Below are positions 5,112 to 52,173 of a stretch of DNA of 64,000 nt, one piece after another. A program made the position numbers and the translations under genes. The notes below the pieces were generated by a model. It was not told the origin of the DNA. It searched no databases and was given only the letters and a program-made list of their open reading frames with translations. The first letter of the stretch is position 1. Each line of letters begins with the position of its first letter. Source of the stretch: Mytilus edulis (taxonomy: Eukaryota); the NCBI RefSeq assembly GCF_963676685.1, contig NC_092349.1:63390924-63454923 (forward strand). Reading direction: 5' to 3'.

Positions 5112-5918
5112 TTAAAATCTTCGTTTTTTGCTTGATGTAAAGGTCATTCTATTACCACCAGGTGGTGCAGTTACTCTTTCTTCAAGTTCTGATACTTGCT
5201 CTCTCAATAGACGAACCTCTCTTTCATACTCGTTTTTCATGTGTTGTAATTTCATTCTGAATATTTCCTGATTTGTTGATGAACCATGTGCTGTTGTACT
5301 TGGTATTTTTTGCCGTAGTTTAGCCAATTTACTCTCATATTCCATTGACACTCTAACGATCTCAGCTTCAGATTCCCTATTTGATGCTTGTAATTTTTCT
5401 TTCAGTTCTTCTACTTCTAAATTCTTTTTTCTTAATGCAATTTCATGACTCTCTTTCTCATTTTCTAATAAAATTTTCATTGAATTTCTAACCTCTTCTT
5501 TCTGTTTTTCATTGTCAATTTCTATTTCTTCTAAAATTCTTGTATGTTGTCTTTCTTTTTCATTCATTTTTAAATTTGAATCTTCAATATCAGATTTTAG
5601 CATTTCTAAATTAGCTTTAATCTCCCTGTTTTCTTCCTCAACGTCACAAATCCTATGTAAACTTTTATGAGTAGAATCCAGAACAGTTTGCAAATGGTCA
5701 ATTTGATTCTCGAGCTCTTCATTTTTTGACGCAAGTTTTTGTTTATCATGAGAAAGTGCATTGACATCCTCCACTAGTTTTGATTTTTGCTTCATTAAAC
5801 TTTCAGTAAAATATTGCCAGTCATCAAAAGATTTCTGAAATTCATCTAAATCATTACTACTTGCAAGTTTTCTTTTCACTGGCCCTGTCCAAGGTTCAGC
5901 TGGTTGTATTTTTTCCAT
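5112..5918 (-). CDS. Single-exon ORF encoding a 268-aa coiled-coil protein (uncharacterised)
   Basis: ATG-to-stop ORF from the track. Heptad-rich, E/K/L/Q-rich sequence (EELENQIDHLQTVLDS..., LENEKESHEIALRKKNLEVEELKEKLQ). No recognisable catalytic motif. Could also be one exon of a larger gene. Confidence 0.4.
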   Translation of the reverse strand: MEKIQPAEPWTGPVKRKLASSNDLDEFQKSFDDWQYFTESLMKQKSKLVEDVNALSHDKQKLASKNEELENQIDHLQTVLDSTHKSLHRICDVEEENREIKANLEMLKSDIEDSNLKMNEKERQHTRILEEIEIDNEKQKEEVRNSMKILLENEKESHEIALRKKNLEVEELKEKLQASNRESEAEIVRVSMEYESKLAKLRQKIPSTTAHGSSTNQEIFRMKLQHMKNEYEREVRLLREQVSELEERVTAPPGGNRMTFTSSKKRRF

Positions 5919-6499
5919 TTTATCTGTAAAAAGAAAAATTAAATTGAAATTTTAATTGCCAGCTCATAAAAATGAAAGAATGAAGATACAATAGACATTC
6001 TAACCCATCAGTCATAGATATAAATAATTTACTGACAACACTATGGCAAAAAAGACCAAAAGACACAACATAGAAATGTTAAGACAGCAACACAAACCCC
6101 ACCAAACCATATAAACAATGTTTATGTTCATGTAAAACTGTTTTCCTCTAATCCTTATACAAATTATCCTTTTCCTGACATATTGATTATTTTTATTCAA
6201 TCAACGATTGATTTGTGTGATCTCAGGACCTGGTCAAAATTTGATTATGACTTCAAATTTGCTTACTTTTCTCTACTTGCTATTGAGACGTCATGACGTT
6301 AGGCGACCATGTCTAAATTAACTTCACATACAAAATGTAGAAAGAACATAATTTTTGCAGATCAATCAAAAAGAAGGACTGAGTTTGTCTAATGTCTGCA
6401 TATTGTTTAAAATTCATCAGAGAAACAGATTCCACCACCAAAACATTTGCAATACAATACTAATCAAATCTCAACAACAAATCTTAATATTTAAAAATG

Positions 6500-17300: not shown

Positions 17301-18785
17301 AGATATTTGTTTGAGCCAGCATTTTTATTAGGCATAAATTGGAGAGCTTTTGTGTGAGTAAATTATTTAACAAAATGTTTAGATGGTAGCTACACACATT
17401 TCTTCAACTATTTAAAGTTATAATGTAACCAAGCATGTAGCATTTGACCTACATGGATTATTTGTCAGCACTCTGGAACAAGTTACCAACTGAAAGTAAA
17501 TTTTTGTAAGTTTAGTTACTAATTTTCGACAAATTGTAGTAGGATTAAATTTAAGAAAAAAATTTGAATTGATGAACTTGAAATATTTATATTCCAACTT
17601 GATAATGCTTCAAAGTAAAATTTCTAATTTTAATAGTAGCTTAAGCTAGATTTCTCATAAAAAAAAATTACTGTGATTTTATTTTAGGCAAAATATGACT
17701 GTAAATACATTTTTTCTCAAGCTGATTAATTGCTTAAAGTTTACCACTCATCATGAAAGGTACAAAACAATTTATCTGGTAGACGGAAAATGATTTTTTT
17801 TAATACATTAATAATGCAAGGCCATGACATAGCTGATTTTACCCAATGAAATAATAGCAAATAAAGATAGCTCAAGGAATCAATTTAATACGAATGGAAA
17901 TAAAAACCTTGACTATTTCCTATTTTTTCATTCCAATTCAACATATAACATGTTTTATTTTAACAAATATAATAGGCACACCATGTATTGTCACATGGTG
18001 ATTTAAACATGATTATTATTATGTGTATGTCAAATTATAATCACTAAAATCAATATGTATATATATCCTAGTAAATAACTTGAACGCTTGGTTGGGTATA
18101 TATTGATTAGCTCGAGAAGGTCAAAGTGTACTTATTGTGAATATTATGTTTGGCTTGTATCCAACCAACCTGTAAATCCATTCATTAGCGTCAGCATTTT
18201 TTCAGGTAAGCTCTTGACATAATAAATATATATATGTATGCATAATTTTTCACACATTTTTATCAAATTAGGCAAAAGATATGATGCATTTATTTTTTCC
18301 CCTGTATTCTTAACTGAAAATTAAAGTGAGGTTCAAAATGCAGGACAAAAATTAATGCTGAATTAAGTAAAAACAAATGTAAGGTATATTTCACAATTTT
18401 TCTTTGCCTTTTAAAATTTATGACTTCTTATGGATTTTATAGGTTTAATATTAGGTATTTACATTAGATACTATCTAGGATATCATATAGATAGATAAAA
18501 TGACATATCCCACTCTTCATCTGTCATCTTCTTTTTATGTTAATGCAATAGAGCCTGGGGTTATTTAGGTCATTCAGTCCAAATATATAGTATTGGCCAA
18601 TGCATAATGTTACTTGTTGATCTCAGACTTATGTAGATTATCAAGACACTGTATATCTTAGCATTGGTGACTCTTGGAAATAAACTTTTATATTATTTTT
18701 TCTAAAAGCTACATGCATAAATTTTCATTTGTATTAAGACATCTATATTCATGAGATTTATGTTTTTATTTTATGGTAATTTGCA

Positions 18786-18915
18786 GAGAAACACACTTTT
18801 GATGCACATGATGCAGAGAGACAAAAAGTAACATAAATAATTAAGGCCGTTTATTTTCTCGTTTGAATTGTTTTACATTGTTTTTTCTGTGCCTTTTATA
18901 GCTGACTACACGGTA
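18786..18915. repeat. About 125-bp segment duplicated almost perfectly at 22784-22908 (MVP-A promoter-proximal versus intron 6)
   Basis: gcagagaaacacactttt.gtgcacatgatgcagagagacaaaaagtaacataaataattaaggccgtttattttctcgtttgaattgttttacattgttttttctgtgccttttatagctgactacacggt. One mismatch. Confidence 0.8.
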
Positions 18916-19215: not shown

Positions 19216-19355
19216 ATGTCCGCACCAAGGAGATCAGCCGATGAGCCTATCTACAGAATACCACCATATTACTATCTACATGTATTGGACCAAAATCTTA
19301 ACATCACAAGACTAGAGATAGGTCCACAGACCTTCATTAGACAAGACAATGAAAG
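19216..19355 (+). CDS. MVP: MVP paralog A exon 1 (start codon)
   Basis: ATG at 19216. [46 protein letters not shown] + ag|gtaagg donor. Matches the vertebrate MVP N-terminus (..[35 protein letters not shown]). Confidence 0.85.
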
Positions 19356-19741
19356 GTAAGGAATTTTTCTATAGAGTGCTTCCACGTAACAAAAGGACCA
19401 CCTACATATCTTGGACATATGTTTGATCGGAACCTTGATAATACAGAACTAGAAAAAGTTCCATAGACCTTTCTTTTTAATGTAAGGCCATGTGTAATCA
19501 CTACTAGTGTTCATTATATACAATGAACAATTCTTAATATTATTCTGCCATTTTTAATTCACAGAATGAAGAAATTGTTTATAGTTAATGAAAATTATAT
19601 TTGAAGGTTTTTTTTACATGTTTAAATAAACTCATCATAGATACAATAAATTATTATTCTTACATTTCTCTAAGCTATTATTGTAATCCAAAGGGAAAAG
19701 CTACTGTAAAACGTGTATCATATGTGCAATTTTACTTACAG

Positions 19742-19937
19742 AGTTGTATATGGACCAGAGCGTATGATCACTGTCCCCCCAAGGCATTATTGTATTATTG
19801 AAAACCCAGTACTGAAAGACAAAGAATGTAAAGTTGTCTTTGACGAAAGTGGACAGGCCAAACTTGTACATGCTGACCAGGAGATAAGATTGGCACAGGA
19901 TCCTTTCCCACTGTACCCTGGGGAAATACTAAAACAA
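19742..19937 (+). CDS. MVP: MVP paralog A exon 2
   Basis: Acceptor ttacttacag. (R)[65 protein letters not shown], donor caa|gtatga. Frame anchored to track ORF 19713..19943. Confidence 0.9.
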
Positions 19938-20710
19938 GTATGATGTACCATTATGCTACACTTTGTTTTCATGTATTACCGTATGGCACTTATTTTCGCA
20001 GGGTGTAAATTTTTGCTTATTTTCTTGGATAGAACAAAATTGTCCAAATAAATTCCTCCTATATAAAAGTTAACATGCAAATGTATTGATAAAATGGTTG
20101 AATCCACCATAACAATCACCACCAAAATATTTCGTATACCATGTATACCTTATTCAATGAAAATCGCAAAATCTGGCATAATTGCTCCATTGCAAGGGAT
20201 TTTGTAAGCATTTATCTGCTAGTCAGATGATAACATCTGCTTTTGAAATATTCACAGATATAGTTTGAATGAGATCTGAGAAAATTGACTTTTTTGAAAC
20301 TTAAATAGTCTTGGTTTCGTTACATATGCATGAGAAAATCATCCAGGAGGAAGAAAACAAAATTTGTAAAATTGAAATTGAAAAGGAAGTAATCATATGT
20401 TTACAAGGTCTTGTTTCTATCATTGTCTATCCAGTACAGGTAACATTTAAGATTTGTTATTAAATCAACATTGATCAGTAGAGTGACAAGGAAGTAAGAT
20501 GTCTTAGACGTTTTACTTGATATCACACACCTTTAAATGTCGTTCTCCAAATTATAATGACTTGTTTGATAGTTAAACTAGTATCTTCAAGGTTAACAAT
20601 GTATGATTTAAATCTTCTTTTCATTTTTTGATACTCATAATATTAGGCCTAGTTTATATAACGTGAAAAGTGTTAGCAGCAAATTTTATTATCTCCCTTT
20701 TTGTTTATAG

Positions 20711-21061
20711 GTTGTAACTCCCTTGAAAGTGGTAGCAGCCAACTCAGCCCTTCGGCTCAGAGCTATTCTAGACTTTGAAGATGACGATGAGGAAAAGAGA
20801 ACAGCTGGGGATGAGTGGCTATTTGAAGGACCAGGAACATATATCCCAAGGAAAGAGGTTGTTATTGAGGAGACTGTCAGAGCCACAGTCATTAGACCTA
20901 ACCAGGCCATTAGACTGAGGGCCAGGAAAGAGACTATTGACAGACAAGGTGTTGCTAGGGTAACTGGTGAGGAATGGCTGGTGAAGAAGACTGGAGCTTA
21001 CCTCCCAGGAGCTTATGAAGAAGTTGTGGATGTTGTCAACGCCTATGTTCTAACAGATAAG
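20711..21061 (+). CDS. MVP: MVP paralog A exon 3
   Basis: Acceptor ttgtttatag. [50 protein letters not shown]...[32 protein letters not shown], donor aag|gtaaag. Track ORF 20723..21076. Confidence 0.9.
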
Positions 21062-21414
21062 GTAAAGAGGCTGTAGAGGGTGCATAAAATGTCTTTTTGT
21101 GGAAACATGAAAGTAAAAAAATCAAATTTACAGTGAAATTATATAAGCACATTATTGTACCAGCACAAAATTTAGGTAAATTTTAATTTAGAAAAAAATA
21201 GATGGCATTTGATGTTTGTTTAGGCAAGATCCTACGATACGTTAAAAAAGGTTACTATCTATAATACATGTTATTGAGAGGAGAAAACCCTATAGAATAA
21301 AGAGTAAATCACACAAAAAATATACAGTACTCCTAATTTAATTGATCATTCTCAATATGTTTGGAGGAAATATGTATATTAAAGTTATTAAATATTTTCT
21401 TTCACATCTTGCAG

Positions 21415-21540
21415 AAAGCCCTTCATATGAGGTCATTGAGAACTTTTAAAGATGACTTTGGTGTAACAAGAAAGAATGGAGAGGAATGGCTGATCAAAAT
21501 GACAGACACAGAAACACACATACCTAATGTGTATGAAGAG
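21415..21540 (+). CDS. MVP: MVP paralog A exon 4
   Basis: Acceptor cttgcag. KALHMRSLRTFKDDFGVTRKNGEEWLIKMTDTETHIPNVYEE, donor gag|gtatgt. Track ORF 21361..21573. Confidence 0.9.
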
Positions 21541-22013
21541 GTATGTATCTCTATGGTGTATAATAACAGATAATGAGGCTACAGCCATATGTTCTATGTG
21601 TCAGATCAATATTACCCTACTGTATATGTACATACCAGTAAATCTTATGTTTCCCATTACTGAAAACCAGCTGGTAATCTGGAACCATTTATACTTTTGC
21701 ATTACAAAATGATCGGGAAAAGTGTCAATCTTATGCAAAGTTTTATAGAAAATGTAATTATAGATTGTACAAAATTGTCTGAAAAAGACTTATCCTTAAA
21801 AACTATCTCTGAAAAAAATTGGTAACCTTTTTCCTTGTTTTAATCTCTAGAACCTCAGTTGATTGCACAGGGATCATTTTCGATAACCATGATTGACAAA
21901 TGATTTACCTTAATTTTAAATACCGGTAAGGAACATTAAAAGTCATTTATTTATGGAATGATACCAATGTCTAGCTTCTGACTTTAATGTACACAACTTT
22001 ATTTTTTCCTCAG

Positions 22014-22124
22014 GTTGTTGGAGTTGTGAATATTACCACATTAACCAGCAGACAATACTGTATTATCCTTGATCCTTCAGATGAGCATGGCAGACCACAA
22101 CTTGGTAGAAAGAAATTAGTCAAG
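22014..22124 (+). CDS. MVP: MVP paralog A exon 5
   Basis: Acceptor ttttttcctcag. [37 protein letters not shown], donor aag|gtatgg. 111 nt, phase 0. Confidence 0.85.
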
Positions 22125-22325
22125 GTATGGTGAAAATTTGTTTCAAGGGAATTTACCCCTTTATTTATTCTATTATCATGATTATAATACAATATTCAAT
22201 GTCAATTTTTACTTAACTGTGGGAACTGTGAAAATAATGCAAACTTGGTGTGTACTTCAAAATTAGAAAGAAAGAAATATTTGGTACATGTAGCAGTATT
22301 ACTAATTTCAATGTATTTTTGGTAG

Positions 22326-22451
22326 GGTGAGTGTTCCTTCTTTTTGTTACCTGGAGAACGATTTGAGAGAGGAATCCAGAATGTCTATGTACTGGGAGAA
22401 GATGAAGGAGTTATACTCAGAGCTACAGAATCATTCAAAGATACAGATGCT
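22326..22451 (+). CDS. MVP: MVP paralog A exon 6
   Basis: Acceptor tttttggtag. [42 protein letters not shown], donor gct|gtaagt. 126 nt. Confidence 0.85.
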
Positions 22452-25400
22452 GTAAGTTTTTTGCCTATTTGAAAAAAAAAATCTGGAAAGACATAAATTG
22501 ATATTCGTGTCTTGGTCGTATAAGCCTCCTAGGTAGCTGGAATATATTTAACAAAGATTACAGCTGTGTCTGCCCATCTAACAGGGTATAAGTCAGCTTT
22601 GTATGATACAGTTTGTCAGTTACTTGTAGATAGAAGGTTGGTTTTATCAGGTCACTGCATTTCCCTCAATAAAACATAAATTTCCTAAAAAGCATGACTA
22701 TGATGACTACAAAAAACAAAACAAAGAAAAAAATCAAAAAAGAGACTGAATTTCATGTTTATTTCTCATTCAATTGCAGAGAAACACACTTTTGGTGCAC
22801 ATGATGCAGAGAGACAAAAAGTAACATAAATAATTAAGGCCGTTTATTTTCTCGTTTGAATTGTTTTACATTGTTTTTTCTGTGCCTTTTATAGCTGACT
22901 ACACGGTCAATTCATTTTTGCATCATGTGTCTTGATGTTGACTATTTCTATATTTCTTGCATGCTCTCTGAATATTATCATGATTGTTGAATAAAAAGGT
23001 CTTGAATTTGAAACAACTTTGAAATAATTTCAAAAGCACTTATTTATTAATGATGGGAATCTGGTTTGGTTTGTAATTCAAAGAAATAGCATTGAAAGAA
23101 GACAACAAGACAAACTAATGCTAAAATAAAAAAAAATAAAAACAAGCCTTGACTATAATAGTTACGCCTTTTTATACGATCACAAAAATTGAAATTGTTT
23201 TGGTCATATATTGGTATGACGTTGGCATTGTCGTCGTCATTGTCGTCATCGTCCGAAGACATTTGGTTTTTGCACTATAACTGTAGTGTTAGATAGAAAT
23301 CTATGAAATTTAAACACAAGGTTTATGACCATAAATGGAAGGTTGGGATTGATTTTGGAAGTTTTGGTCCAAACAGTTTAGGAATTAGGGGCCAAAAAGG
23401 GCCTACATAAGCATTTTTCTTGGGTTTTCGCACACAATAACTAGTTTAAGTAAACAGAAATCTATGAAAATTTAACATAAGGTCTATGACCACAAAAGGA
23501 AGGTTGGGATTGATTTTGGGAGAGTTTTTGTCCCAACAGTTTAGGAATTAGGGGCAAAAAACAGGTCCCAAGTAGGCATTTTTCTTGGTTTTTGCACAAT
23601 AACTTTAGTATAAGTTAATAGAAATCTATGAAATTTTAACACAAGGGTTATGACCACAAAAGGTAAGGTTGGGATTGATTTTAGGAGTTTTGGTCCCAAC
23701 GGATTAGGGGCCACAAGGGTCCAAAATTAAACTTTGTTTAATTTCATCAAAAATGTATTATTTGGGTTCTCTGATATGCCAAATCTGACCGTGTATTCAG
23801 ATTCTTAATTGTTTGTCCTGTTTTCAAATTGGTCTACATTAAGGTCCAATGGGTTCAAAATTTAATTTAGCTTGATTTTAACAAAAATTGAATTCTTGGG
23901 GTTCTTTGATATGCTGAATCTAAACATGTACTATGGGCCCAGTTTTCAAGTTGGTCCAAATCAGGGTCCAAAATTATTATATTAAGTATTGTGCAATAGC
24001 AAAAAAAATTCAATTGCACAATATTGTGCAATAGCAAGAAATCTTCAATTGCACAGTATTGTGCAATAGCAAGAAATTTTCAATTGCACAGTATTGTGCA
24101 ATAGCAAGAAATCTTCAATTGCACAATTTTGCGCAATAGCAAGAAATTTTCAATTACAGTTTTGCGCAATAACAAGAAATATTCAATTGCACAGTATTGT
24201 CCCGTTTTCAAATTGAAACTTCAAATTAAAATAAAATGTGCATATGTTTTTATAACTAAATGGATAGTTTTCATTATATAACTTATGCACATATACTTTT
24301 TTCTGAAGAAAATTCTTTAATTTGTCCACATTTAGAAGAAGTTTACTTTTTTTTTAATTGCTTGCTTCCAGGAAGCAATTTGCGGACATATTTTCCATAT
24401 GCATAGTGACCTTAGCGTGACCCTCCTCATAAAAATCCAGTGATTGTAATTCGCATGGATTTGTCTTTAAAATAAACAATTATCTGATTGTACATGTTAA
24501 ACACAAGCTCAATACCCATGCTTTTTTGTTGTTTGTTTAATATAAGGTAACAATCGGTTAACTTCGAGCCAGCCATATTTTTTAAATCTTAACAGACAGA
24601 GAGAAAAAATTGATGATTCTACAATATATTTGCGTAAAAAATGATAAAATCGTGCACAGAAGACTTAGTTTATAATATATACATGCATTGGTTCAAGAAT
24701 TGGATAAACATTATTTTTCACTAGTCACTCGTTTCATGACTATAAGGTCCAAATGGTCAAAAATTAAACTTTGTTTGATTTCAACAAAAATTGAATATAT
24801 GGGGTTCTTCAATATGCTAAAACTAACCATGTATTTAGATTTTTAATATTTGCGCCCAGTTATCAAATTGGTCCACATTGAGGTCTGAAGGGTCTAAAAT
24901 TGAACATTATTTGTTTTTATCTAAAATTGAATTCTTGGGGTTTTATGATCTGCTGAATCTAACCATGTATTAAGATTTTGGATATTGGACCATTATAGGT
25001 AAATGTCCAATTTAAAATTTTTAACTTTTTAAGTTTAAGTTCTTAGACCACATTCATTCTGTGTCAGAAACCTATGTTGTGTCAACTATTTAATCACAAT
25101 CTAAATTCAGAGCTGTATGAAGCTTAAATGTTGTGTCCATACTTGCCCCAACTGTTCAGGGTTCAACCTCTGCGGTCGTATAAAGCTGCGCCTGCGAAGC
25201 ATCTGGTTTATAGAAGTGTTTAAATTCAGTACACTATGCAGTGAACATATATTTTTCAAAGTTATGTCAAAAGATTAGATTGTTTTGTTGTATAACATTT
25301 ATTTACTCTGCATGTTAATATTTTGTTGCATACCATAATATTAAAAGTCTGCTTATGTTAATTCTGTCTGTCTCTCTGTGACTGATTTGCCATTTCAGGA

Positions 25401-25635
25401 TCTAAGCGACTCTAAGGTATTTTTAAGCTGTTCAAACACCTAAGTAAAGTGTACATTACACCTTTGGTTGGAAATCCATTATTTTCTGGAAAAACAAATT
25501 GCATTTTTGGCATTTTTAATTTGTTTTTACCCAAAATGCATTACTGGTAGATTCTGAAATGGTAAAATGTCAAATAACATTAAAGTGTAAAGCAGAGAAG
25601 AGAAAAGGTGAATATTACCTTTTTGTTTATTTCAG

Positions 25636-25647
25636 CCTGATGAAAAA
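25636..25647 (+). CDS. MVP: MVP paralog A putative 12-nt micro-exon (PDEK)
   Basis: tttttgtttatttcag|cctgatgaaaaa|gtaagtc has a strong polypyrimidine tract, AG and a GTAAGT donor. It is phase-neutral and fills the acidic linker between ..KDTDA and [10 protein letters not shown] (compare vertebrate ..EEGEDEEK..). Not required for frame, so it could be alternative. Confidence 0.45.
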
Positions 25648-27126
25648 GTAAGTCAGCAAGTGCACTTAATGCTTTCAGTGCTTTGATCTAACTGTGATTC
25701 TTGTCATACACATTAGATATAAGTAATGTGCTAGCTGCTTCAGAATAGGAAGTGCTTTCTTTGATTATCTAGTGTTTTTAATGTGTGTTTGTCCTTTAAT
25801 CCCTGTTTTGCTAATGTGTTTTACTAATGTGTTTTGCTAATGCCTTAAATTGTCCAGTGTTTTTTCTCATCATTAAAGGGAATCATGAAAACAAACCATG
25901 CTTTTTATTTGAAACTAGATCGATTAATTAAAGACAATGAAAAAAGAACAAATTATTTATAGTTCAATAAACAAAGACATTTAACTTTTTCAAAACATAA
26001 TTTAGTTGTTAATTTGTAAATTTCCTGAATGATATGTAATTCAGCTGTTTGCATTGCAAAGTGCTACAATTTGTATAAATGTACTAAATAATAACAAAAG
26101 ATTTCTTATAATGTGTGCTTCAATAACATAAGTATGCTTTATATTAGGTTCATATTTCAACCTCAATTCCATTGGGAGACTCCTATACTGTTTATACAAA
26201 AGTAAGTCACAGTGACTTCGCTTTGTAAATAGATATTTAAAAATTCAATGTTGTTTGAATATATTATTTTAATAATCTTTTGTTCAAGTTTTCAAAAGAA
26301 ATTTTAAAATCAAGGATTTGAATAAGTTATTTTCTACATAATAAATATTAATAAGCTTTATTTTCAAGAACAAATTCTTGATACAAAATAAATCAGTTAT
26401 TTTCATGCTGTCATCTATTATTCATATCTCATTAGCCTTTTATTGGTCCCAATATCTATGTAATACTTGCCACTGGACATTAAGAAGCAATACTCTATCA
26501 TTCGTTTGATACCAACCTTCATGGGTTTTGTGGGTACAGGTGAACTACAAATTCAAATGTTCAACACATTACAAATTTTTTAATGACTTCAAAATATCTG
26601 CTTGAACATAATAGTATTTTCATTTTTTACATTTTCAAGACTTACATGTTTGAGATTTCTATTCATTCAAATTTCAATACACATTTCATCAAACTCCTTT
26701 ACTAATAGATACTTGTTTTCTGTGTACTTAATCTGGCTTTAAAGATGATTTATTTTGAGTTTACAACATATAATAGCCTTAATGTAGCTTCAAAGGGGTT
26801 CTATCTCTGCATGAGCAATAAAATATTTTTCATGAAGTACAAGTTCAGTCCTTTGACAAAGTTTTTCTCAGTGCATTTACCATGCTTATTGACTTAAGTT
26901 TTTGCACTAACAAGTTTTTCATTTCAACTTTATACTTTTATGGCTGCTTTTTAATGTAGAACTGTTGGTAGTTTTATAAATACTATCAGTTTAAGTCTTC
27001 AGAAGTCATTTCATTTCATACTAGCACATAAAAAGATAGTCAAAACAAGATTTACAAAATCAAGATTCTGTTGGGAAAGATTTTTTGTGACAACAAAGTT
27101 ATTTATTATCAAACTTTTTATTTAAG

Positions 27127-27276
27127 GATGTTGAAAGGAAACCAGGAGATAAATGGATGATCAGGGGACCAGCAGAATATGTACCACCTGTAGAGGTCGA
27201 GGTCATCATGAAGAGAACTGCAATCCCATTGGACGAAAATGAGGGAATCTATGTCAGAGATATTAAAACTGGAAAG
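27127..27276 (+). CDS. MVP: MVP paralog A exon 8
   Basis: Acceptor tttatttaag. [50 protein letters not shown], donor aag|gttggt. 150 nt. Confidence 0.85.
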
Positions 27277-27712
27277 GTTGGTGTTACACATATATATATA
27301 TATACTAACATTAAAACTTGAAATCAACAATAACAAATTCATTTTTTTTTTAAATTCAAAAGAAAGATAAAAAATCTTTTTTAAATGGAATATTTAGCAA
27401 AATGAAGTTATTTTTTGAAGTGAGGATTTTTTCATGAATTTTGTTAAACAAAAAACAACCTATTTTGTAACTGAACAATTCCGAGAATTTTGTGTATGTT
27501 ATGAAACACCGGGGATCTCTATTTTGACCAAAAATTATGAATTAAGATTTGATGTATTGTTATGTTTTTTAAAATACACTGGGTACTGTATATCATTATT
27601 GAGAGAACACACAAACCATTTAAATAGTAACATCTCCCATCATCCATCAACGTTTGATATTGTCTTTACACTAGTGAAGTTTTGACTAAGATTAACATTA
27701 TACATATTATAG

Positions 27713-27951
27713 GTCAGAGCTGTAACTGGAGAAACCTATATGTTAAACCAAGATGAGGAATTATGGGCCAAAGAACTTCCTCCTGCAGTTGAGACCCTTC
27801 TTGCCCAAGGAAAAGACCCTATGGCAGACAGGAGTGATAGGTCCAAATCAAGTGATTCATCCAAACCACGCGACAAGACTCGTGTTGTCACATTCAGAGT
27901 TCCACACAATGCTGCAGTACAGATTTATGATTATAAAGAAAAGAAAGCCAG
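27713..27951 (+). CDS. MVP: MVP paralog A exon 9
   Basis: Acceptor tattatag. [79 protein letters not shown] + ag|gtaaat. Track ORF 27740..27955. Confidence 0.9.
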
Positions 27952-28545
27952 GTAAATAGTGTTTCATACTCAGTGTATACATTCCCATATCCAACAGGCC
28001 ATGAGCAGAATCAGGCTAGTCATTTGATTCATAACAATCTATGAATATTGATTGAGTAGAAAGTACACATTGTAAACCAACTTCTTCAGGGCTTTAGTGG
28101 CCTAATGGGCTAAGAGGTTCATATACAATCATCACAATCTTTTAATTTAAGGTTGCGAGTTCAAACTCAGCGGGTTCCAAGTAAGTTAGACATCAATCTT
28201 AATCAACAAGAAATGCCAGTTTTCCTGCTGAATATCAATGGTTCTTTATGGTTACTCCTGCTTTCTCAATTAATTAAATCTGACCACTGTGGTATGGCAA
28301 ATTTTGCTGAAACTGGAATCAAATATCTAAAAAGAAACAAACAAAGTTCTTTATGTAAATCTTTGATAATTGTTGAATGATCCAGACAATTTTGGTAAAA
28401 TTTAGATTTTATTGAAAACTTATAATTCACAAATTTAATCATTACCCTTGAAATCCAACAAAATTAGTATCAAACAAGTTGTAATGATTGCACAGTAGTT
28501 AGTTACATAGAAATAATACCACTTGTAATTTTCTTTCCTTTATAG

Positions 28546-28888
28546 AGTTGTGTTTGGTCCAGAATTAGTTATGTTGGGTCCAGATGAACAATTCACACAG
28601 CTTAGTCTCTCTGGAGGTAAACCAAAGAAACAAAACGTTATCAAATCATTGTGTTTACTTCTTGGACCTGATTTCTGTACTGACATTATCACCGTAGAAA
28701 CAGCCGATCACGCTAGGTTGTCACTTCAGCTGTCATACAACTGGCACTTTGATATTAAAAATAAAGAAGATAAGACAGAGGCATCTAAGATTTTCAGTGT
28801 ACCAGATTTTGTTGGGGATGCCTGCAAGGCCATTGCCTCCCGGATTAGAGGAGCTGTGGCTCAAGTTCAGTTTGATGATTTCCACAAG
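28546..28888 (+). CDS. MVP: MVP paralog A exon 10
   Basis: Acceptor cctttatag. (R)[28 protein letters not shown]...[31 protein letters not shown], donor aag|gtatga. Track ORF 28550..28894. Confidence 0.9.
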
Positions 28889-29506
28889 GTATGATTAATA
28901 ATCTGTACAAGTGTAGATCTTAATAGACACATGCATTATCACTGAAATTTTTTTATAGGTCAAACTCATAAAATTATTGTTCTATTCATAAATATTACGC
29001 ATATAAAAATTGTTTTAGCTGTTGAGAAAATATTCATAAATATTGCGCAAATAAAAATAAATGTGTGGTATGATTGGCAATTTGAGTACTCTCCACCAGA
29101 GACAAAAGTGGCATAGAATTTAACCTTGAATTATAATTTTATGAACAAATAAACATGAGCTAAAAATTGTCTTTCAAAATTATACTAAAGAATTATTTCC
29201 AGGTTTTTCTCAAAATCCAGGGGTGGTGCTAAAAACTCCAGAGTGTAAGAGAACCACTCTGGAATATCCTTTGATGTTCCGTGAGGCATATTGATAGATA
29301 CGAAACCTTATGTTTATACATGTATCACTGCATAATATAATTTTTTCTCATCAGGGCAAGGAGTGAATCAATCCTATTAAATGAAGAAAAAATATATTAT
29401 GCCATATAGAATAAAAAATACAATCACAAATAATCAGTACAAACTGAAAATTATCTACTGTGGACAGAAAAAAAATCAAAATTAAGAAATCTGCATTATG
29501 TTACAG

Positions 29507-29718
29507 AATTCTGCTAGGATCATCAGATCTTCTGTGTTTGGTTTTGATGACAAAGACAAAGTGCGTGAAGTTTTCAAATTCCCACAAAACAACTTGGTAT
29601 TCACCAGTATTGATATCCAGTCTGTAGAACCTGTAGATCAGAGAACTAGAGATGCCTTACAGAAGTCTGTACAACTGGCCATTGAAATCACAACAAACTC
29701 ACAGGAAGCTGCTGCAAG
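29507..29718 (+). CDS. MVP: MVP paralog A exon 11
   Basis: Acceptor tatgttacag. [70 protein letters not shown] + ag|gtagat. Track ORF 29498..29722. Confidence 0.9.
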
Positions 29719-30129
29719 GTAGATAACTCTACAATAACTTCTACTGGTATCATAAAAACACACAAATTATTGTACAGGAGAAAACTGCAAAGTAGTTATG
29801 AAAACACAGTTCAATTTTAGATGACAAGGCATTTATAAAAATGAAGAAATGGTTTCATTTGCCAATGAAACAATTCTCCACCAGAGACCAAATGACATGA
29901 AGATTAACTACTATGGGTCACCATTCTGACTTCAGTACCTTATCATTATAAATGGCAATGGTCCTGCTCCCTAATGTTGGGAACCTGTACATGATTTGTT
30001 TGTTCATCTGTGCTGGTGTTTATCATTTAGATAGTTCATGCCAGAAATAAGAATTATATTGGAAGTAATCTGCAAAACACAAATTGATGAATATAAGTGA
30101 AGAGTTTTATCAATATATATTTTTTTCAG

Positions 30130-30373
30130 GCATGAAGCAGAAAGATTAGAACAGGAAGCTAAAGGAAGATTAGAGAGACAAAAGATATCAGATGAAGCAG
30201 AAGCTGAGAAATCCAGGAAGCAATTGTTAGAACTACAGGCAAACAGTGCTGCAGTAGAAAGTACTGGTCAGGCTAAAGCAGAGGCACAGTCCCGAGCTGA
30301 AGCTGCTAGGATTGAGGGTGAGGCAGCTGTAGATCAAGCCAAACTGAAATCACAGGCCATGAAGATTGAGGCA
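30130..30373 (+). CDS. MVP: MVP paralog A exon 12 (coiled-coil cap helix)
   Basis: Acceptor ttttttcag. (R)[81 protein letters not shown], donor gca|gtaagt. Track ORF 30224..30409. Confidence 0.9.
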
Positions 30374-31274
30374 GTAAGTATAAAAATGTGTTGCTCTGTC
30401 AGAATATAACATTCACTAATTATACAACTGCAAAAATTGAAAATTTTTGGTCGTATATTGGTACGACATTGTTGTCAACGTCGTCAACGTCCGAAGACAT
30501 TTAGTTTTCGCACTATAACTTTAGTATGAGTAGATAGAAATCTATGAAATTTAAAAACAAGGTTTATGACCATAAAAGGAAGGTTGAGATTGATTTTGGA
30601 AATTTTGGTCCCAACAGTTTAGGAATAAGGTGCCAAAAAGGGCCCAAATAAGCATTTTTCTTTGTTTTCGCACAATAACTTTAGTATAAGTGAACAGAAA
30701 TCTATGACATTTTAACATAAGATTTATGACCACAAAAGGAAGGTTGAGATTGATTTTGAAAATTATATACCAAAGATAATGCATACTGTGGACTAATTAT
30801 TATTCCCTGGATACTTATTTTCGTGTATTTCCTCAGGAGAGAAAAATAACAAATTTAAATGTTCAACAAAACCTCAGATTTCCTATTGGCTTGTCTAGAG
30901 ATTTTTTGAATCCATGGATATTGCTATCTATAAAAAGAAAGTATATCTCAGCATATAAATAATATAATATAATGAATATAAAGAGATTTTGAAAGATTGT
31001 CAATTACTATAATTTCAAATTGAGACGAATGGATAAGGATGTTACCACCACTGGGAACCATATGCCCTTCAACAATTAACAAAACACATAGCTTGACCTT
31101 TTAGAAAGTTTTGTCAAATATGTCAAAGAGACAACAGCCATACTGAAGAGTAGATAACAGCCAAAGGCCACCCAAACTTGTCTAACAAAATGAATTCTTG
31201 ATTATTCTCATCCAAACCTCTAGGTTATGCAAATGTTTGAGATCATATCTTCAAATTCTTTGTTGACTTTGTAG

Positions 31275-31613
31275 GAGTCCGAATTAGAAAGACTTACACA
31301 AGCCAGAGAGGCAGAACTTAAATATGTGAGAGAGCAGAACGACATGGAACTTTCAAAATCAAAAGAAATGTCAACTATCGAAACAACAAAATTCAAGAAC
31401 ATGGTGGATGCTATTGGAGCAAATACCTTGGCAACCATGGCTTCAGCTGGACCAGACCAACAGGTCCGTATGTTGCAGTCCCTTGGCCTGAAATCAACCC
31501 TTATCACAGACGGTAGTACACCAATAAATCTGTTTAATACAGCCAACGGATTGGTTGGAGGTATGATGCCAGCGAAGAGGAGCAGACGATCGGATGAGGA
31601 AGATGATGATTAA
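31275..31613 (+). CDS. MVP: MVP paralog A exon 13 incl. stop
   Basis: Acceptor ctttgtag. [112 protein letters not shown]. The motif [24 protein letters not shown] is the conserved MVP C-terminus. Track ORF 31326..31613. Confidence 0.9.
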
Positions 31614-44088: not shown

Positions 44089-44433
44089 TTATTCATAACA
44101 ATCATCGTCGTCGTCATGGCGTTTCCCCCTCTTTGCTGGCATCATACCTCCAATCAATCCATTAGCTGTATTAAACAGATTAATTGGTGTGCTACCGTCC
44201 GTGATGAGGGTTGATTTCAGGCCGAGGGACTGCAACATACGGACCTGTTGGTCTGGTCCAGCTGAAGCCATGGTTGCTAAGGTATTTGCTCCAATAGCAT
44301 CCACCATGTTCTTGAACTTTGTTGTTTCGATGGCTGACATTTCTCTAGATTTGCTTAGTTCCATTTCATCTTGTTCTCGAACATATTTTAATTCTGCCTC
44401 TCTGGCTTGTGTAAGTCTTTCCAATTCAGATTC
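44089..44433 (-). CDS. MVP: MVP paralog B exon 13 incl. stop
   Basis: Acceptor cttattttag. [114 protein letters not shown]. Track ORF 44089..44424. AATAAA overlaps the stop. Confidence 0.9.
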
Positions 44434-44807
44434 CTAAAATAAGATTTAAAATATTTTACCAACATTATCTACAATAATACAACATATCAGCTAAGTTGAG
44501 TTCTATAAATAGATAGCATATAATTTTGGTGAAACATACCATTATATGTCAACACCGTAAAGATAATTTCAGATAATAACAGGATAAAAACAGAAACATG
44601 GGACACATACAAACTTGGAAACAGCATCATTTAAAATTCTACGATATACTGAAATTATTTCAAATATTCTTCGAGTGCGAGCAATTCTACACACCTTTAT
44701 CAAATGCAAACAGTGAAATGGTAAAAAAGCAAGGTTAAAGCATATGACCTATAAACCACTTATGCCATCAAATTTCATTGAAAAATTACATAAACCCTGC
44801 TACTTAC

Positions 44808-45051
44808 TGATTCAATCTTCATGGCTTGTGATTTTAGTTTAGCTTGGTCTACAGCTGCCTCGCCTTCAATCCTTGAGGCTTCAGCTCGGGACTGTGCCTC
44901 TGCCTTAGCCTGGCCAGTACTTTCTACTGCAGCACTGTTTGCTTGTAATTCTAACAATTGTTTCCTGGATTTTTCAGCCTCTGCTTCATCTGAAATCTTC
45001 TGTCTTTCTAATCTTCCTTTAGCTTCTTGTTCTAATCTCTCTGCTTCATGT
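44808..45051 (-). CDS. MVP: MVP paralog B exon 12
   Basis: Acceptor ccattctag. (R)[81 protein letters not shown], donor tca|gtaagt. Track ORF 44775..45104. 244 nt as in A. Confidence 0.9.
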
Positions 45052-45313
45052 CTAGAATGGGAAAACAAACGTTGATTAACAATGATGAACTTAATCTGAA
45101 TCAATCAACATTTCATATGCCTTTGTGTCACTTACCATGCTTGTACGACATGGTTAATGCATATGATTGTATTGATCAAATATGGTTCAGCTTCTTGCGA
45201 GTTAGTCGTGACTAAATACCCTGGTTTGCAAAATTAACTACATTGAAGCGGCTTCCTCTGAGTTAAATGTGCATTCGATGGCTAGCAGTAAAGATTTCTA
45301 TAGAGTAACTCAC

Positions 45314-45525
45314 CTTGCAGTAGCTTCTTGTGAGTTTGTGGTAATTTCAATGGCCAGCTGTACAGATTTTTGTAAGGCATCTCTTGTTCTCTGATCTACA
45401 GGCTCAACAGATTGAATATCAATACTGGTGAATACCAAATTGTTTTGTGGAAATCTGAAAGTCCCTCGAACTTTTCCTTTCTCATCAAAACCAAATACTG
45501 ATGATCTGATGATTCTTGCCGAATT
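45314..45525 (-). CDS. MVP: MVP paralog B exon 11
   Basis: Acceptor cattttag. [70 protein letters not shown] + ag|gtgagt. Hand-translated. 212 nt as in A. Confidence 0.85.
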
Positions 45526-45780
45526 CTAAAATGAAAGATTGTCTATCTTTTAGCTGACTTTTTTTATATTTCTACGTTTTCACAAATACATGGCTTTTAA
45601 ACATTTTGAAGATGAAGGTAAATCCAGAAAAGCGATTAGAACACACCAAATTTATAAAGTCAAAAACTGATGCATTTAAGAAAAGGTTTCAGGTTTCCAT
45701 CATCTTTGGGTTAGTGTATGCCCTCACTCGAATTTCATATCTTTAAACCAAACTATTTCCTGTATAAAGATAATGCTAAC

Positions 45781-46123
45781 CTTATGGAAGTCATCAAACT
45801 GTACTTGTGCCACGGCCCCTCTGACTCGGGAAGCTATAGCCTTGCAGGCATCTCCAATGAAATCTGGTACACTGAAAATCTTAGCAGCCTCGACTTTATC
45901 CTCTTTGCTTTCAATTTCAAAGTGCCAGTTGTACGACAGCTGTAAAGACAGTCTTGCATGGTCAGATGTTTCTACTGTAATGATGTCAGTACTGAAGTCT
46001 GGTCCCAGAAACAAACATAGTGATTTAATGACATTGTTTTTCTTTGGTTTGCCACCAGAAAGGCTAAGCTTTGTAAATTGTTCATCAGGACCTAATAAAA
46101 CCAACTCGGGACCAAAAACAACT
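45781..46123 (-). CDS. MVP: MVP paralog B exon 10
   Basis: Acceptor ctttacag. (R)[114 protein letters not shown], donor aag|gttagc. Track ORF 45724..46104. Confidence 0.9.
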
Positions 46124-46359
46124 CTGTAAAGAAAAGCAAAATTGAAGATAAGTTAAGATTTTATCACATGATTTACATATTAGTATCTTGTTAGTACATT
46201 GTATTGCTCTAATAAACAGACTTATCAAACCCCTTTCACCAATTGAAATAAGGTACAATTAAGAACAGTATTATGATGACATTATCAATTCTAAACATAA
46301 AACTTAACGCTTAAATTAAATCTCACTTTAAGTACCAATAACACATTTTATCAATATAC

Positions 46360-46601
46360 CTTGCTTTCTTTTCTTTATAATCGTAAATCTGTACAGCAGC
46401 ATTGTGTGGAACTCGGAAAGTGATCACACGTGTTTTGTCACGTGGTTTAGCAGCCTCACTTCCTGGTTTTGGTCCTCTCTCACCAAAGGCCTGTGGGTTT
46501 TTAGCCTCAGCCAGGAGAGTCTCGACTGCAGGAGGAAGTTCTTTAGCCCATAGTTCCTCATCCTGATTTAACATGTATGTCTCTCCAGTTACAGCTCTGA
46601 C
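46360..46601 (-). CDS. MVP: MVP paralog B exon 9
   Basis: Acceptor cattttag. [80 protein letters not shown] + ag|gtatat. Track ORF 46323..46574. 242 nt versus 239 in A. Confidence 0.9.
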
Positions 46602-46855
46602 CTAAAATGTGTATTTTAAAATATTTGATATCACAAGGTAACAAATATATATGTTCAATTCACAACTCTATTCAGTTAATATATTCTTATAGATCACCGA
46701 AAATTACATTTGATGTGTTAAATGAATTTGCATTTTACACAAAGATGTTTGATAGAATTTCATTACATAATATGAGACTATCAACTGACTGACATCTTTA
46801 AGAAAAATACACATGTATATGATTATTTGTGGAAAATAGAAACTGTATGACATAC

Positions 46856-47005
46856 CTTTCCAGTTTTAATACATCTGACATAGATACCCTCATTTTCATC
46901 TAGTGGTAGTGCAGTTCTCTTCATGGTCACCTCAACCTCCACTGGTGGAACGTATTCTGCTGGTCCCCGAATCATCCATTTATCTCCTGGTTTTCGTTCT
47001 ATCTT
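46856..47005 (-). CDS. MVP: MVP paralog B exon 8 (no micro-exon 7 equivalent located)
   Basis: Acceptor ttatttccag. [50 protein letters not shown], donor aag|gtatgt. Track ORF 46823..47062. Confidence 0.9.
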
Positions 47006-47504
47006 CTGGAAATAAAAGAACATGTCAATAGAAATATTATCGTGTAAAACAAAGCAAAACAATCATATCAATAGTAATTTGGATTTCATACCAAAGACAC
47101 CTTCAATAGGAAATAATTGTCAAACTGTTTTAAACAGGTGGAACTAGTTTGCATTTTACATTTACCACAGATAAAAGGGTTCCCAGAATAACTATTAACC
47201 TGAAATGTTTGAGCAAAAACAGTATCATTCAGGCTTACATAAAGGTCATTTTTATAAATTTCCTGTTTACAAAATTTTGAATTTTTCAAAAAACTAAGGA
47301 TTTTCTTATCCCAGGCATAGATTACCTTAGCCGTATTTGGCATAACTTTTCGAATTTTTGATCCTCAATGCTCTTCAACTTTGTACTTGTTTGGCTTTAT
47401 AAATATTTTGATATGAGCGTCACTGATGAGTCTTATGTAACCGAAACGCGCGTCTGGCGTACTAAATTATAATCCTGGTACCTTTGATAACTATTTGCAA
47501 TAAC

Positions 47505-47650
47505 AGTATGACAACCAGGTGCTCCGCAGGGCGCAGCTTTATACGACCGCAGAGGTCGATCCCTGAACAGTTGGGGCAGGTATGGACAAAAAATTTAAGC
47601 GTGATACAGCTCTGAATTTGGATTGTGATCAAATTTTTGACATTATATGG
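47505..47650 (+). mobile_element. SINE-like about 180-bp element (ccagatgctccgcagggcg.agctttatacgaccgcagaggttgaaccctgaacagttggggcaagtatggacac...) with a box-B-like GGTTGAACCC. Copies are at 48555-48720(+), 52315-52500(+), 1741-1925(-), 25043-25210(-), 36690-36865(-) and 41140-41300(-).
   Basis: Seven copies at about 85-95% identity in both orientations. Three (36690, 41140, 48555) are fused to an about 250-bp A-rich module (..atgatgtatttaaatgag..attcaacagcatagtgaattgctcaaaag), giving a composite about 450-bp element (36440-36865, 40890-41300, 48555-48960). Confidence 0.6.
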
Positions 47651-50600
47651 GTTTTTTACACAAAACAAATGTCAAGCCATTCCATCATCATCATCATCTC
47701 AATTCAAATTTTAAATGGACTTTGCAACCATAAACACTCATTTAAATACATCAGAAAATTATAAAAATAGAAAATGACATGATAGTCATGTCTGGCAAAT
47801 TTCCAACATACATTATCTAAAAACATTTTAGAAAAGATAAGGGAAAAAAGCTTCATCAGCAACATTTTATATTGGCAAATTTCCAATGAAGTTATTTACA
47901 TAAAGTTATTGGCAAATAAAAATAGAAAATGACATCATAGTCATATCTGGCAAATTTCCAACATATATTATCTAAAAATATTTTAGATAAGATAAGGAAA
48001 AAAAAACTTCATTAGCAACATTTTATATTGGCAAATTTCCAATGAAGTTATTTACATAAAGTTATAGGCAAATAAAAATAGAAAATGACATCATAGTCAT
48101 GTCTGGCAAATGTCCAACATACATTATCTAAAAACATTTTAGATAAGATAAGGAAAAAAAGCTTCATCAGCAACATTTTATATTGGCAAATTTCCAATGA
48201 AGTTATTTACATAAAGTTATTGGCAAATTTCCAACATATATTATCAACTACTACTCTATACAAAGAAAGATAACTCCAATTGAAAATTAATTGCTATTAC
48301 ACAATATTGTGCAATTAGATATTTCTTGCTATTGTGCAATACTGTGCAATTGAAAATTTCTTGCTATTGCACAATACTTGATATGGAATCCTGATTTGGA
48401 CCAACTTGAAAACTGGACCCATAATCAAAAATCAAAGTACATGTTTAGATAAAGCATATCAAATAAGCCAAAGAATTTAATTTTTGTTAAAATCAAACTT
48501 AGTTTAATTTTGGACCCCCATTTGGACCAACTTGAAAACTAGGCCAATAATTAACCAGATGCTCCGCAGGGCGTAGCTTTATACGACCGCAGAGGTTGAA
48601 CCCTGAACGGTTGGGGCAAGTATGGACACAACATTCAAGCTGGATTCAGCTCTAAATTTGGATTGTGATTAAATAGTTGACACAGCATAGGTTTCTGACA
48701 CAGAATGAATGTGTTCTAATGAACTTAAAATTTTTGTTTTCTCTTAGAGCAATTCACTATGCTGTTGAATATTAATCCTCTCAAAAAAATGTTTGAAGAA
48801 ATTTTCTTTTTTATTTATGAAATTTCAAATGAGAAAAATTGAACCCAATTTTTTTAATCACATCCCCCTTTCCTTTATTCCAAAACTAATCTCAATTAAA
48901 ATTTCTAATGGAGTTTGCAACAATAACTACTCATTTAAATACATCATAAAATATTAAGATGTAAAAAAACTGCTTGTTATCACTGAATGGTAAAGATTAT
49001 TTTAATTTATCAGTTGGTAGTAAAAAGTGAATATACATTGTATATTGTATATAACAAAGATTTAAGTTGATTCTGGACAAAGAAAGATAACTCCAATTAA
49101 AAAAAATCTTGCTATTGCACAATATTTTGCAATTAGATATTTCTTGCTTACTATTCTGGACAAAGAAAGATAACTCTAATTAAAAAAAAAATTTGCTATT
49201 TCACAATATTGTGCAATTAAATATTTCTTGCCATTGCGCAATACTGTGCAATTGAAAAGACTTGCTATTGCACAATACTTAATATAATAATTTTAGATCC
49301 TGATTTGGACCAACTTGAAAAGTGGGCCCATAATAAAAAATCTAAGAACATTTTTGGATTCAGCATATCAAAGAACCCCAAGATTTCAATTTTTGTTAAA
49401 ATCAGACTAAGTTTAATTTTGGACCCTTTGGACTTGATGGTAGACCAATTTGAAAACAGCACCAAAAATGAAGAATCTACATACACAGTAAGATTTGGTA
49501 TATCAAAGAACCCCATTTATTCAATTTTTGATGAAATCAAACAAAGTTTAATTTTGGACCCCGATTTGGACCAACTTGAAAACTGGGCCAATAATCAAGA
49601 ATCTAAGTACATTTTTAGATTCAGCATATCAAAGAACCTAACTGATTCATTTTTTGTCAAAATCAAACTAAGTTTAATTTTGGACCCTTTGGACCTTAAT
49701 GTAGACCAATTTGAAAACGGGACCAAAAGTTAAGAATCTACATACACAGTCATGACAGTTAGATTCGGCATATCAAAGAACCCCAATTATTCAATTTTGA
49801 TGAAATCAAACAAAGTTTAATTTTGGACCCTTTGGGCCCCTTATTCTGTTGGGACCAAAACTCCCAAAATCAATACAAACCTTCCTTTTATGGTCATAAA
49901 CCTTGTGTTTAAATTTCATAGATTTCTATTTACTTAAACTAAAGTTATTGTGCGAAAACCATGAATAATGCTTATTTGGGCCCTTTTTTGGCCCCTAATT
50001 CCTAAACTGTTGAAACCAAAACTCCCAAAATCAATCCCAACCGTTCTTTTGTGGTCATAAACCTTGTGTCAAAATTTCATAGATTTCTATTAACTTAAAC
50101 TAAAGTTATAGTGCGAAAACAAAGAAAATGCTTATTTGGGCCCTTTTTGGCCCCTAATTCCTAAAATGTTGGGACCAAAACTCCCAAAATCAATACCAAC
50201 CTTCCTTTTGTGGTCATAAACCTTGTGTTAAAATTTCATAGATTTCCATTCACTTTTACTAAAGTTAGAGTGCGAAAAGTTTTTCAAATTTTGCGGTCGT
50301 ATAAAAATCTAAGTACATTTTTAAATTCAGCATATCAAAGAACCCCAAGGATTCAATTTTTGTTAAAATCAAACTAAGTTTAATTTTGGACCCTTTGGAC
50401 CTTAATGTAGACCAATTTGAAAACGGGACCAAAAATTAAGAATCTACATACATAGTTAGATTCGGCATATCAAAGAACCCCAATTATTCAATTTTTGATG
50501 AAATCACACAAAGTTCAATTTTGGACCCTTTGGGCCCCTTATTCCTAAACTGTTGGAACCAAAACTCCCAAAATCAAACCCAACCTTCCTTTTGTGGTCA

Positions 50601-51445
50601 TAAACCTTGTGTTAAAATTTCATAGATTTCCATTCACTTTTACTAAAGTTAGAGTGCGAAAAGTTTTTCAAATTTTGCGGTCGTATAAAAATCTAAGTAC
50701 ATTTTTAAATTCAGCATATCAAAGAACCCCAAGGATTCAATTTTTGTTAAAATCAAACTAAGTTTAATTTTGGACCCTTTGGACCTTAATGTAGACCAAT
50801 TTGAAAACGGGACCAAAAATTAAGAATCTACATACATAGTTAGATTCGGCATATCAAAGAACCCCAATTATTCAATTTTTGATGAAATCACACAAAGTTC
50901 AATTTTGGACCCTTTGGGCCCCTTATTCCTAAACTGTTGGAACCAAAACTCCCAAAATCAAACCCAACCTTCCTTTTATGGTCATAAACCTTGTGTTTAA
51001 ATTTCATAGATTTCTATTTACTTATACTAAAGTTATGGTGCCAAAAATAATGCTTATTTGGGCCCCTTTTTGGCCCCTAATTCATAAACTGTTGTGACCT
51101 CAACTCCAAAAATCAATCCCAAGATTTTGGGAGTTTTGGTCCCAACATTTTAGGAATTTGGGGCCATATTCATTGATTTCTATTCACTTTTACTAAAGTT
51201 AGAGTGCGAAAACTAAAAGTATTCGGACGACGACGACGCAGGACGACGACGACGACGCCAACGTGATAGCAGTATACGACCAAAAAATTAAAATTTTTGC
51301 GGTCGTATAAAAAGCATAGGCCATTTTCTGTGTTAACTTAAAATAATTTTGTTGAACAGTTTTGATATAGATACAGACATCCAATCATAAAACAAAAAGA
51401 AAACACGTGATATAAATACTTAATAGTGTTCACAGTTCAACTTAC

Positions 51446-51571
51446 AGCATCTTTATCAATGAATGATTCTGTTGCTCGTAGAATAACACCTTCATCTTCT
51501 CCCAGTACATAGACATTCTGGATTCCTCTCTCAAATCGTTCTCCGGGTAACAAAAAGAAGGAACACTCACC
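51446..51571 (-). CDS. MVP: MVP paralog B exon 6
   Basis: Acceptor tttttatag. [42 protein letters not shown], donor gct|gtaagt. 126 nt. Confidence 0.85.
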
Positions 51572-52173
51572 CTATAAAAATACAATTATATAAAATGAGA
51601 ATAATTATATACTCGGGGAATAAGAAAGATGCCTTCAATGAAAACGTTAAAGTTAAGTTAAAGATCAGCTTTCAGCTGTTGAGTTGTATTGACATTGAGA
51701 GAAAAAAGAATGTTTTCTGTAAAATACACAATGTAAAGAATTCTGATCCGAACGCCGACTTATTAATTGACATTTCACCGTTTCAGAATCTAATGCACCC
51801 TGAGTAATATTTTCCAAAGTGTACGCCAGAAACGTCGTGATTGGTTAAAAATGTCATTAACAATGGAAATTCAACCAATGACGTGACGCTATTTTCATTT
51901 TGGGTACGAACAATGAAATTACCCATGATTCTTTAGATTTTGAAACGGCCAATTACTAAGTACTCTTTTAGAGATGGTGCAATAGGAAATACACCGTACA
52001 TATGACATAATAACAGGGCGTTTTCGTCACTGTTCAAAATACTTTATTCACATAAGCTTGTTGCATGCCAATTTATTAATATAAACTTGGTATATACTAT
52101 GCAACAGCATACATTGATGAAACTTAGTTATACAGAATATTATCTATGCTAATTCATCTAACATTGTATTTAC

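Follow-up and report, generated by a model that had tools for sequence, protein, structure and literature searches.

The stretch of DNA analysed here (64,000 nucleotides of Mytilus edulis contig NC_092349.1, hereafter the window) carries two convergent genes for the major vault protein (MVP), and the question that it raises is whether 12 nucleotides lying in an intron of one of them, at 25636-25647 (+), constitute an exon. From the letters of the window and their comparison with related sequences, we consider it highly probable that this segment is a genuine, alternatively spliced cassette micro-exon of the first gene, MVP-A, and that it is specific to this paralogue.

The exons of both genes were mapped from six-frame open reading frames, an A-versus-B blastn comparison and splice signals. 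The coding region of MVP-A spans 19216-31613 (+) and comprises 12 constitutive exons plus cassettes, while that of the convergent MVP-B spans 44089-56112 (-) and comprises 12 exons, with no cassette. Both products belong to the MVP family: each has an identical MVP-like protein in RefSeq, MVP chains of the PDB match the segment surrounding the cassette with E-values of 1e-91 to 6e-95, and the Pfam set PF01505, PF17794-6 and PF11978 is recorded for identical or near-identical database proteins. An Rfam scan of the window returned no matches. The window also holds, at 5115-5951 (-), a 279-codon open frame, coiled-coil-like and rich in Glu, Lys and Leu, which is likely to be an exon of an unrelated neighbouring gene.

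Splice signals and conservation of the 12-nt segment

The segment (CCTGATGAAAAA, encoding Pro-Asp-Glu-Lys or PDEK) is hosted by intron 6 of MVP-A, a 4.7-kb phase-0 intron that separates exon 6 (22326-22451 (+), GECSFF..SFKDTDA, with its donor GTAAGT at 22452) from the next constitutive exon (27127-27276 (+), where tatttaag precedes GAT GTT GAA and the protein resumes as DVERKP). It is immediately preceded by tttcag and followed by gtaagt, the wider context being cctttttgtttatttcag on the upstream side and gtaagtcag on the downstream side. The 3' splice region (25616-25635 (+)) consists of a pyrimidine tract and CAG (ttacctttttgtttatttcag), whose AG is kept in four species, and the donor GTAAGT opens a stretch of about 90 nt of conserved downstream intron (25648-25737 (+)) containing AGTGCTTTCAGTGCTTTG. 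Since exon 6 ends in phase 0 and the next constitutive exon starts in phase 0, the segment is phase-neutral, and the direct join of exon 6 to 27127 is in frame too. With at most 30 nt between AG and GT, an orientation on the sense strand of its gene and a frame that is kept whether it is included or skipped, the segment has the format of a cassette micro-exon.

Splice signals were scored with position weight matrices trained on the 22 donors and 22 acceptors of both MVP genes. The acceptor of the micro-exon obtained a score of 6.2, which falls in the lower third of the leave-one-out scores of real sites, and its donor a score of 10.1, which falls in the upper third. When the whole window was scanned on both strands (128 kb), the micro-exon was the sole AG..GT pair, 3-30 nt apart, at or above both scores; judging from site densities, about 0.005 stop-free, phase-neutral pairs of this kind are expected by chance in intron 6. 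That splice-signal scores alone can mislead became clear from a well-scoring 18-nt look-alike located 220 bp upstream (25399-25416 (+), DLSDSK), which appears at slightly looser thresholds and in which GATCTAAGCGACTCTAAG is framed by ccatttcag and gtattt. This candidate was rejected: three species (M. trossulus, M. californianus and M. coruscus) have no GT at the donor, M. coruscus has also lost the AG of the acceptor, and the DLSDSK peptide occurs in no database protein. It is probably a species-specific pseudo-exon. We therefore dropped an argument from clustering, according to which half of the four good candidates found in 128 kb lay within this one intron.

We aligned the orthologous MVP-A loci of M. 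trossulus, M. californianus and M. coruscus over the unique part of the intron. The tttcag, the 12-nt length, the GTAAGT and the open frame are kept in all four Mytilus genomes. The exon encodes TDEK in the other three species, as ACTGACGAAAAA in M. californianus and as ACTGATGAAAAA in M. trossulus and M. coruscus; the sole changes across the four species are a synonymous GAT to GAC and a C to A at base 1, which replaces Pro by Thr. In the region spanning -20 to +90, 74% of the positions are identical in all four species, compared to an intron mean of 55%, which places this region at about the 90th percentile of the intron; overall, conservation at the exon lies at the 80th-90th percentile. 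This conservation is supportive rather than decisive because the four species are closely related (their MVP-A proteins are 99% identical). The conserved 90 nt or so past the donor, with AGTGCTTTCAGTGCTTTG, would make a plausible splicing enhancer for such a short exon.

Included and skipped forms in mytilids

The 12-exon model of MVP-A is identical over 858/858 residues to the RefSeq "major vault protein-like isoform X2" (XP_071180012.1 and others, P0249), and the same model with the 12 nt added is identical over 862/862 residues to isoform X1 (XP_071180006.1 and others, P0248), of which the segment is exon 7. X1 (862 residues) and X2 (858 residues) are thus products of the same locus whose sole difference is PDEK. 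In an independent annotation of M. edulis (ENA), CAG2185674 (P0128) reads KDTDA-PDEK-DVERKP and CAG2185673 skips PDEK. Support for inclusion in M. edulis is indirect, consisting of the 862/862 identity to RefSeq X1 and of the PDEK in the ENA model CAG2185674. The same KDTDA-PDEK-DVERKP is found in isoform X1 of M. galloprovincialis, where the skipped isoform is present as well, and KDTDA-TDEK-DVGRKP is found in M. californianus X2 and in M. coruscus CAC5419289, each with a skipped partner. In M. trossulus, the exon is intact in the genome, yet the annotation holds the skipped 858-residue form only. The sequence-only reading of this locus had described a pyrimidine tract and AG upstream of the segment, a GTAAGT downstream, a phase-neutral insertion and a possible alternative splicing event; the signals are indeed present, both flanking exons are in phase 0 with both products equal to annotated proteins, and X1 on the one hand, X2 and CAG2185673 on the other, as well as the isoform pairs of M. 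galloprovincialis, M. californianus and M. coruscus, bear out the alternative splicing.

It follows from this public annotation, in RefSeq and ENA and in several Mytilus species, that the PDEK micro-exon is not novel. In the library that we searched, no paper links MVP to a micro-exon beyond an incidental mention, and the isoforms, although present in databases, do not seem to have been studied themselves. Further searches brought no additional case. The exact X1 protein has no record in the contig index. A protein search with a chimeric query containing both cassettes of the intron (the second is described below) returned no Mytilus sequence, and PDEK, TDEK and VHISTS occurred in no new protein. 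Scans of metagenome DNA with the spliced inclusion junction and with the genomic exon gave 0 matches each. A protein query spanning exons 5-9 retrieved only fragments of at most 77% identity, with the insert absent at the junction; it is likewise absent at the exon 6 junction in the closest non-mytilid homologues.

Contigs assembled from samples of another, more distant mytilid (ERR33424xx runs, ERZ272292xx analyses), whose A-like protein is approximately 93% identical to that of M. edulis, contain both forms. Four contigs of 3.0-3.8 kb harbor an uninterrupted 863-residue open reading frame in which GCTGACCACAAA (ADHK) stands between GATGCT and GATATGGAA (GATATG...). In two further contigs, whose run numbers belong to the same series, the open reading frame has 859 residues and precisely those 12 nt are missing; outside the cassette, the two kinds of contig differ at 11-12 of 2580 positions. 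We take these contigs to be transcripts on account of their mRNA-like size and their lack of introns, not on the basis of run metadata. The 12-nt cassette is therefore both included and skipped in these assemblies, with the proviso that the contigs with and without it come from different runs and that their origin from one species or individual is not established. The included form is the commoner, with six 863-residue sequences and one 809-residue fragment as opposed to two 859-residue sequences.

These data bear on two readings that deny the segment the status of an alternative exon. According to one, it is a chance pseudo-exon, a fortuitous AG/GT pair in an AT-rich intron that annotation pipelines have propagated. 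The look-alike at 25399-25416, which scores similarly and is not conserved, lends this reading some credit, as does the fact that the M. edulis support rests on annotation models; against it stand the lack of any other pair of such quality in 128 kb, the agreement of two independent annotation systems over four species, the retention of splice sites and frame in four genomes and, finally, the intron-free contigs of the other mytilid, which hold a 12-nt cassette at the identical junction. We regard this reading as largely refuted already and give it hardly any weight. According to the other, the exon is constitutive and its absence from the skipped forms is an artefact of aligners that overlook very short exons. 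Exons below about 15 nt are often lost by spliced aligners and by gene predictors, a weakness that could account for the M. trossulus and X2 models. However, de novo contigs are independent of spliced alignment and show both forms in the other mytilid, and the closest non-mytilid homologues as well as paralogue B manage without the insert; a constitutive exon is thus very improbable too. The preferred reading remains that of a cassette that is alternatively included in MVP-A.

The scan of intron 6 also brought out a second, phase-neutral cassette exon of 54 nt at 26148-26201 (+), which encodes VHISTSIPLGDSYTVYTK and whose ends, GTTCAT and ACAAAA, are bordered by tattag and gtaagt. Its peptide is identical to the 18-residue insert of the M. 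californianus MVP-like isoform X1 (XP_052073489, P0246). The exon is 96% identical in four Mytilus genomes, with AG and GT kept and with one synonymous and one Asp-to-Gly change. It is absent from both M. edulis isoforms X1 and X2, and the peptide is hydrophobic and strand-like, unlike PDEK.

Two repeats were noted in the same intron. A satellite or dispersed repeat of about 2 kb occupies 23168-25212 (+); arrays related to it occur in the B intron and at other places in the window. In blastn comparisons, the unique segments that flank the block lie no more than about 90-190 bp apart in the orthologous introns of M. trossulus, M. californianus and M. coruscus, so that the M. edulis lineage has probably gained the block by a recent insertion. 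In addition, a 134-bp segment at 22774-22907 (+) is 99% identical to 18781-18914, some 300 bp upstream of the MVP-A start codon; the pair goes back either to a local duplication of very recent date or to a mobile element.

The paralogue without the cassette

Exon 6 of MVP-B (51446-51571 (-)) and the following exon (46856-47005 (-)) are separated by an intron, 47006-51445 (-), that is rich in tandem repeats and has no PDEK-like micro-exon. The MVP-B model is identical over 858/858 residues to M. edulis XP_071180003 (P0275), the only B product listed in RefSeq. With the donor at 51445 and the next exon starting at 47005, SFIDKDA joins KIERKP in frame, and the length equals that of the direct join in A. 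The insert is absent from the B orthologues of all five species considered (M. edulis, M. galloprovincialis, M. trossulus, M. californianus and M. coruscus), in which the junction reads SFIDK, Asp or Ala, AK, Ile or Val, ERKP.

A scan of B intron 6 with the weight matrices yielded, as its best stop-free candidates, only weak segments located in repeats and unrelated to PDEK. The A and B introns could not be aligned, the exons alone being alignable, and the absence of the cassette from B hence rests on this signal scan and on the annotated B products. Within these terms, what the sequence-only reading had said of copy B holds: the frame is preserved without the micro-exon, the intron has no equivalent of it, the description of that intron as mostly satellite is fair (tandem repeats make up about 2.6 of its 4.4 kb), and the suggestion of a paralogue-specific exon agrees with the B orthologues of the five Mytilus species and with the single RefSeq product. 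The two convergent mussel MVP paralogues differ in their splicing repertoire.

In a neighbour-joining tree, the Mytilus A and B genes pair to the exclusion of the gene of the other mytilid. This topology suggests, albeit weakly, that the cassette is older than the A/B duplication and that B then lost it; the weakness lies in the long branch of B and in the patchy identity between A and B exons, maybe due to gene conversion. At the nucleotide level, exons 2, 3, 4, 6 and 11 are 90-96% identical between the two copies, and exons 1, 5, 7-10 and 12 are 79-87% identical. This patchwork, along with the unalignable introns, suggests episodic gene conversion between the convergent copies.

The R7 loop and comparison with known systems

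We propose the following course of events. In the skipping event, the spliceosome would join 22451 directly to 27127, which would give the 858-residue isoform X2; in the other, the 12 nt would be included and the 862-residue isoform X1 would result. As both junctions are in phase 0, inclusion would merely insert Pro-Asp-Glu-Lys. The alignment described below puts the insert in the acidic loop of vault repeat R7, shortly ahead of the conserved GDxW motif of the repeat, and would lengthen this solvent-exposed, flexible loop by four charged or polar residues with the fold left undisturbed, presumably on each of the 78 MVP copies of a vault shell. The conserved 90 nt or so past the donor may help the spliceosome to recognize so short an exon.

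The placement in the loop follows from a HMMER alignment in which PDEK is set against residues 344-347 (E-D-E-E) of human MVP, within PLEEGEDEEKVSHQAGD, in agreement with the sequence-only reading, which had located the insertion at the acidic linker of vertebrate MVP. The same alignment relates the site, by way of the internal repeats, to the acidic loop of R3. At the cassette site, the loop measures 14-39 residues in 120 homologues. Homology did not demand the exon: even without it, the direct join matches most relatives in loop length. An AlphaFold2 model of CAG2185674 was too poor for use (mean pLDDT 56.5, pTM 0.26); in this low-confidence model, two short predicted strands flank PDEK (residues 374-377). 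For the human cryo-EM structure, backbone gaps are reported at residues 429-449 and 608-619 only, from which it can be deduced that the human counterpart of the loop was traced.

Whether inclusion matters to the vault is a separate issue, and a reading that accepts the exon in RNA but takes it to be functionally neutral, a tolerated or low-level variant kept by drift and short divergence times and not by selection, has a substantial though minority share of our confidence. It draws on the wide range of loop lengths among homologues, on the shifts between Pro, Thr and Ala at codon 1 and between Glu and His at codon 3 among mytilids, on a conservation that merely reaches the 80th-90th percentile of the intron, on the annotation of the skipped form alone in M. 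trossulus and on paralogue B, which manages without the exon. By contrast, the 12-nt length, the splice sites and the x-D-x-K pattern persist as far as the mytilid whose protein is about 93% identical, the inclusion form makes up most of the contigs of that mytilid, and some 90 nt of downstream intron are conserved, all of which speak against neutrality. Under the reading that we prefer, namely an alternatively spliced cassette of MVP-A, the exon has little significance beyond annotation quality; it shows that a 12-nt exon can be called correctly from the raw sequence alone. Should the cassettes prove to be regulated, they would give natural access to the loop of R7, the one vault repeat without lateral contacts (PMC2752026), in a particle whose cellular function is still described as unclear (PMC13347060).

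Apart from the RefSeq isoforms X1 and X2 of the same locus, from which nothing differs, the cassette can be compared with known systems at four levels. The orthologous mytilid cassettes are alike in their 12-nt length, phase 0, identical junction, included and skipped forms and x-D-x-K peptide; they differ at codon 1 (Pro, Thr or Ala) and codon 3 (Glu or His), and in that M. trossulus has no annotated inclusion isoform. As regards vertebrate MVP, PDEK aligns with E344-E347 of the human protein, in the beta2-beta3 loop of R7. This loop is the most variable part of the repeats according to the crystal study of R1-R7 (Querol-Audi et al. 2009, PMC2752026), which also found it partially disordered in R7, the only vault repeat lacking lateral contacts.

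At a third level, the micro-exon can be set beside the SRRM3/4 (eMIC) programme.

The neural micro-exons of this programme, in bilaterians, are frame-preserving cassettes of at most 27 nt that fall in surface loops and have conserved flanking intron, and those that depend on SRRM4 typically have a UGC motif that separates the pyrimidine tract from the 3' splice site. The MVP-A micro-exon resembles them in being very short, frame-preserving, located in a surface loop and flanked by conserved intron. It differs with respect to the motif: TGC is absent within 45 nt upstream of the micro-exon (25590-25635 (+)) and occurs only downstream of the donor, and the comparison does not support membership of the programme.

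The fourth comparison is with amphioxus (Branchiostoma), whose MVP-like RefSeq isoforms differ by a cassette at this junction, between KDMDA and KDGVERKPGD, as exemplified by TDDEEADEEVSSKPAGAQ. Variation at this junction was recorded in six isoforms (P0205, P0209, P0212, P0214, P0219 and P0233), and it is because these isoforms differ there that we consider the same loop and intron position to be alternatively spliced in a distant phylum. As a speculative extension, which we think improbable as a whole, intron 6 of mytilid MVP-A could be a small alternative-splicing module, in which the PDEK and VHISTSIPLGDSYTVYTK cassettes would remodel the beta2-beta3 loop of R7 and thereby give rise to structurally distinct vault shells; the site would then be one of recurrent vault-surface diversification in animals, amphioxus included, with paralogue B fixed in the short form. 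The 54-nt cassette might, in that case, add a beta-hairpin like that of R3-R5 in the same loop. The amphioxus inserts differ from those of mussels in their length (about 18-21 residues as opposed to four for PDEK), their more strongly acidic character and their unrelated sequence, and the amphioxus and mussel cassettes presumably arose independently.
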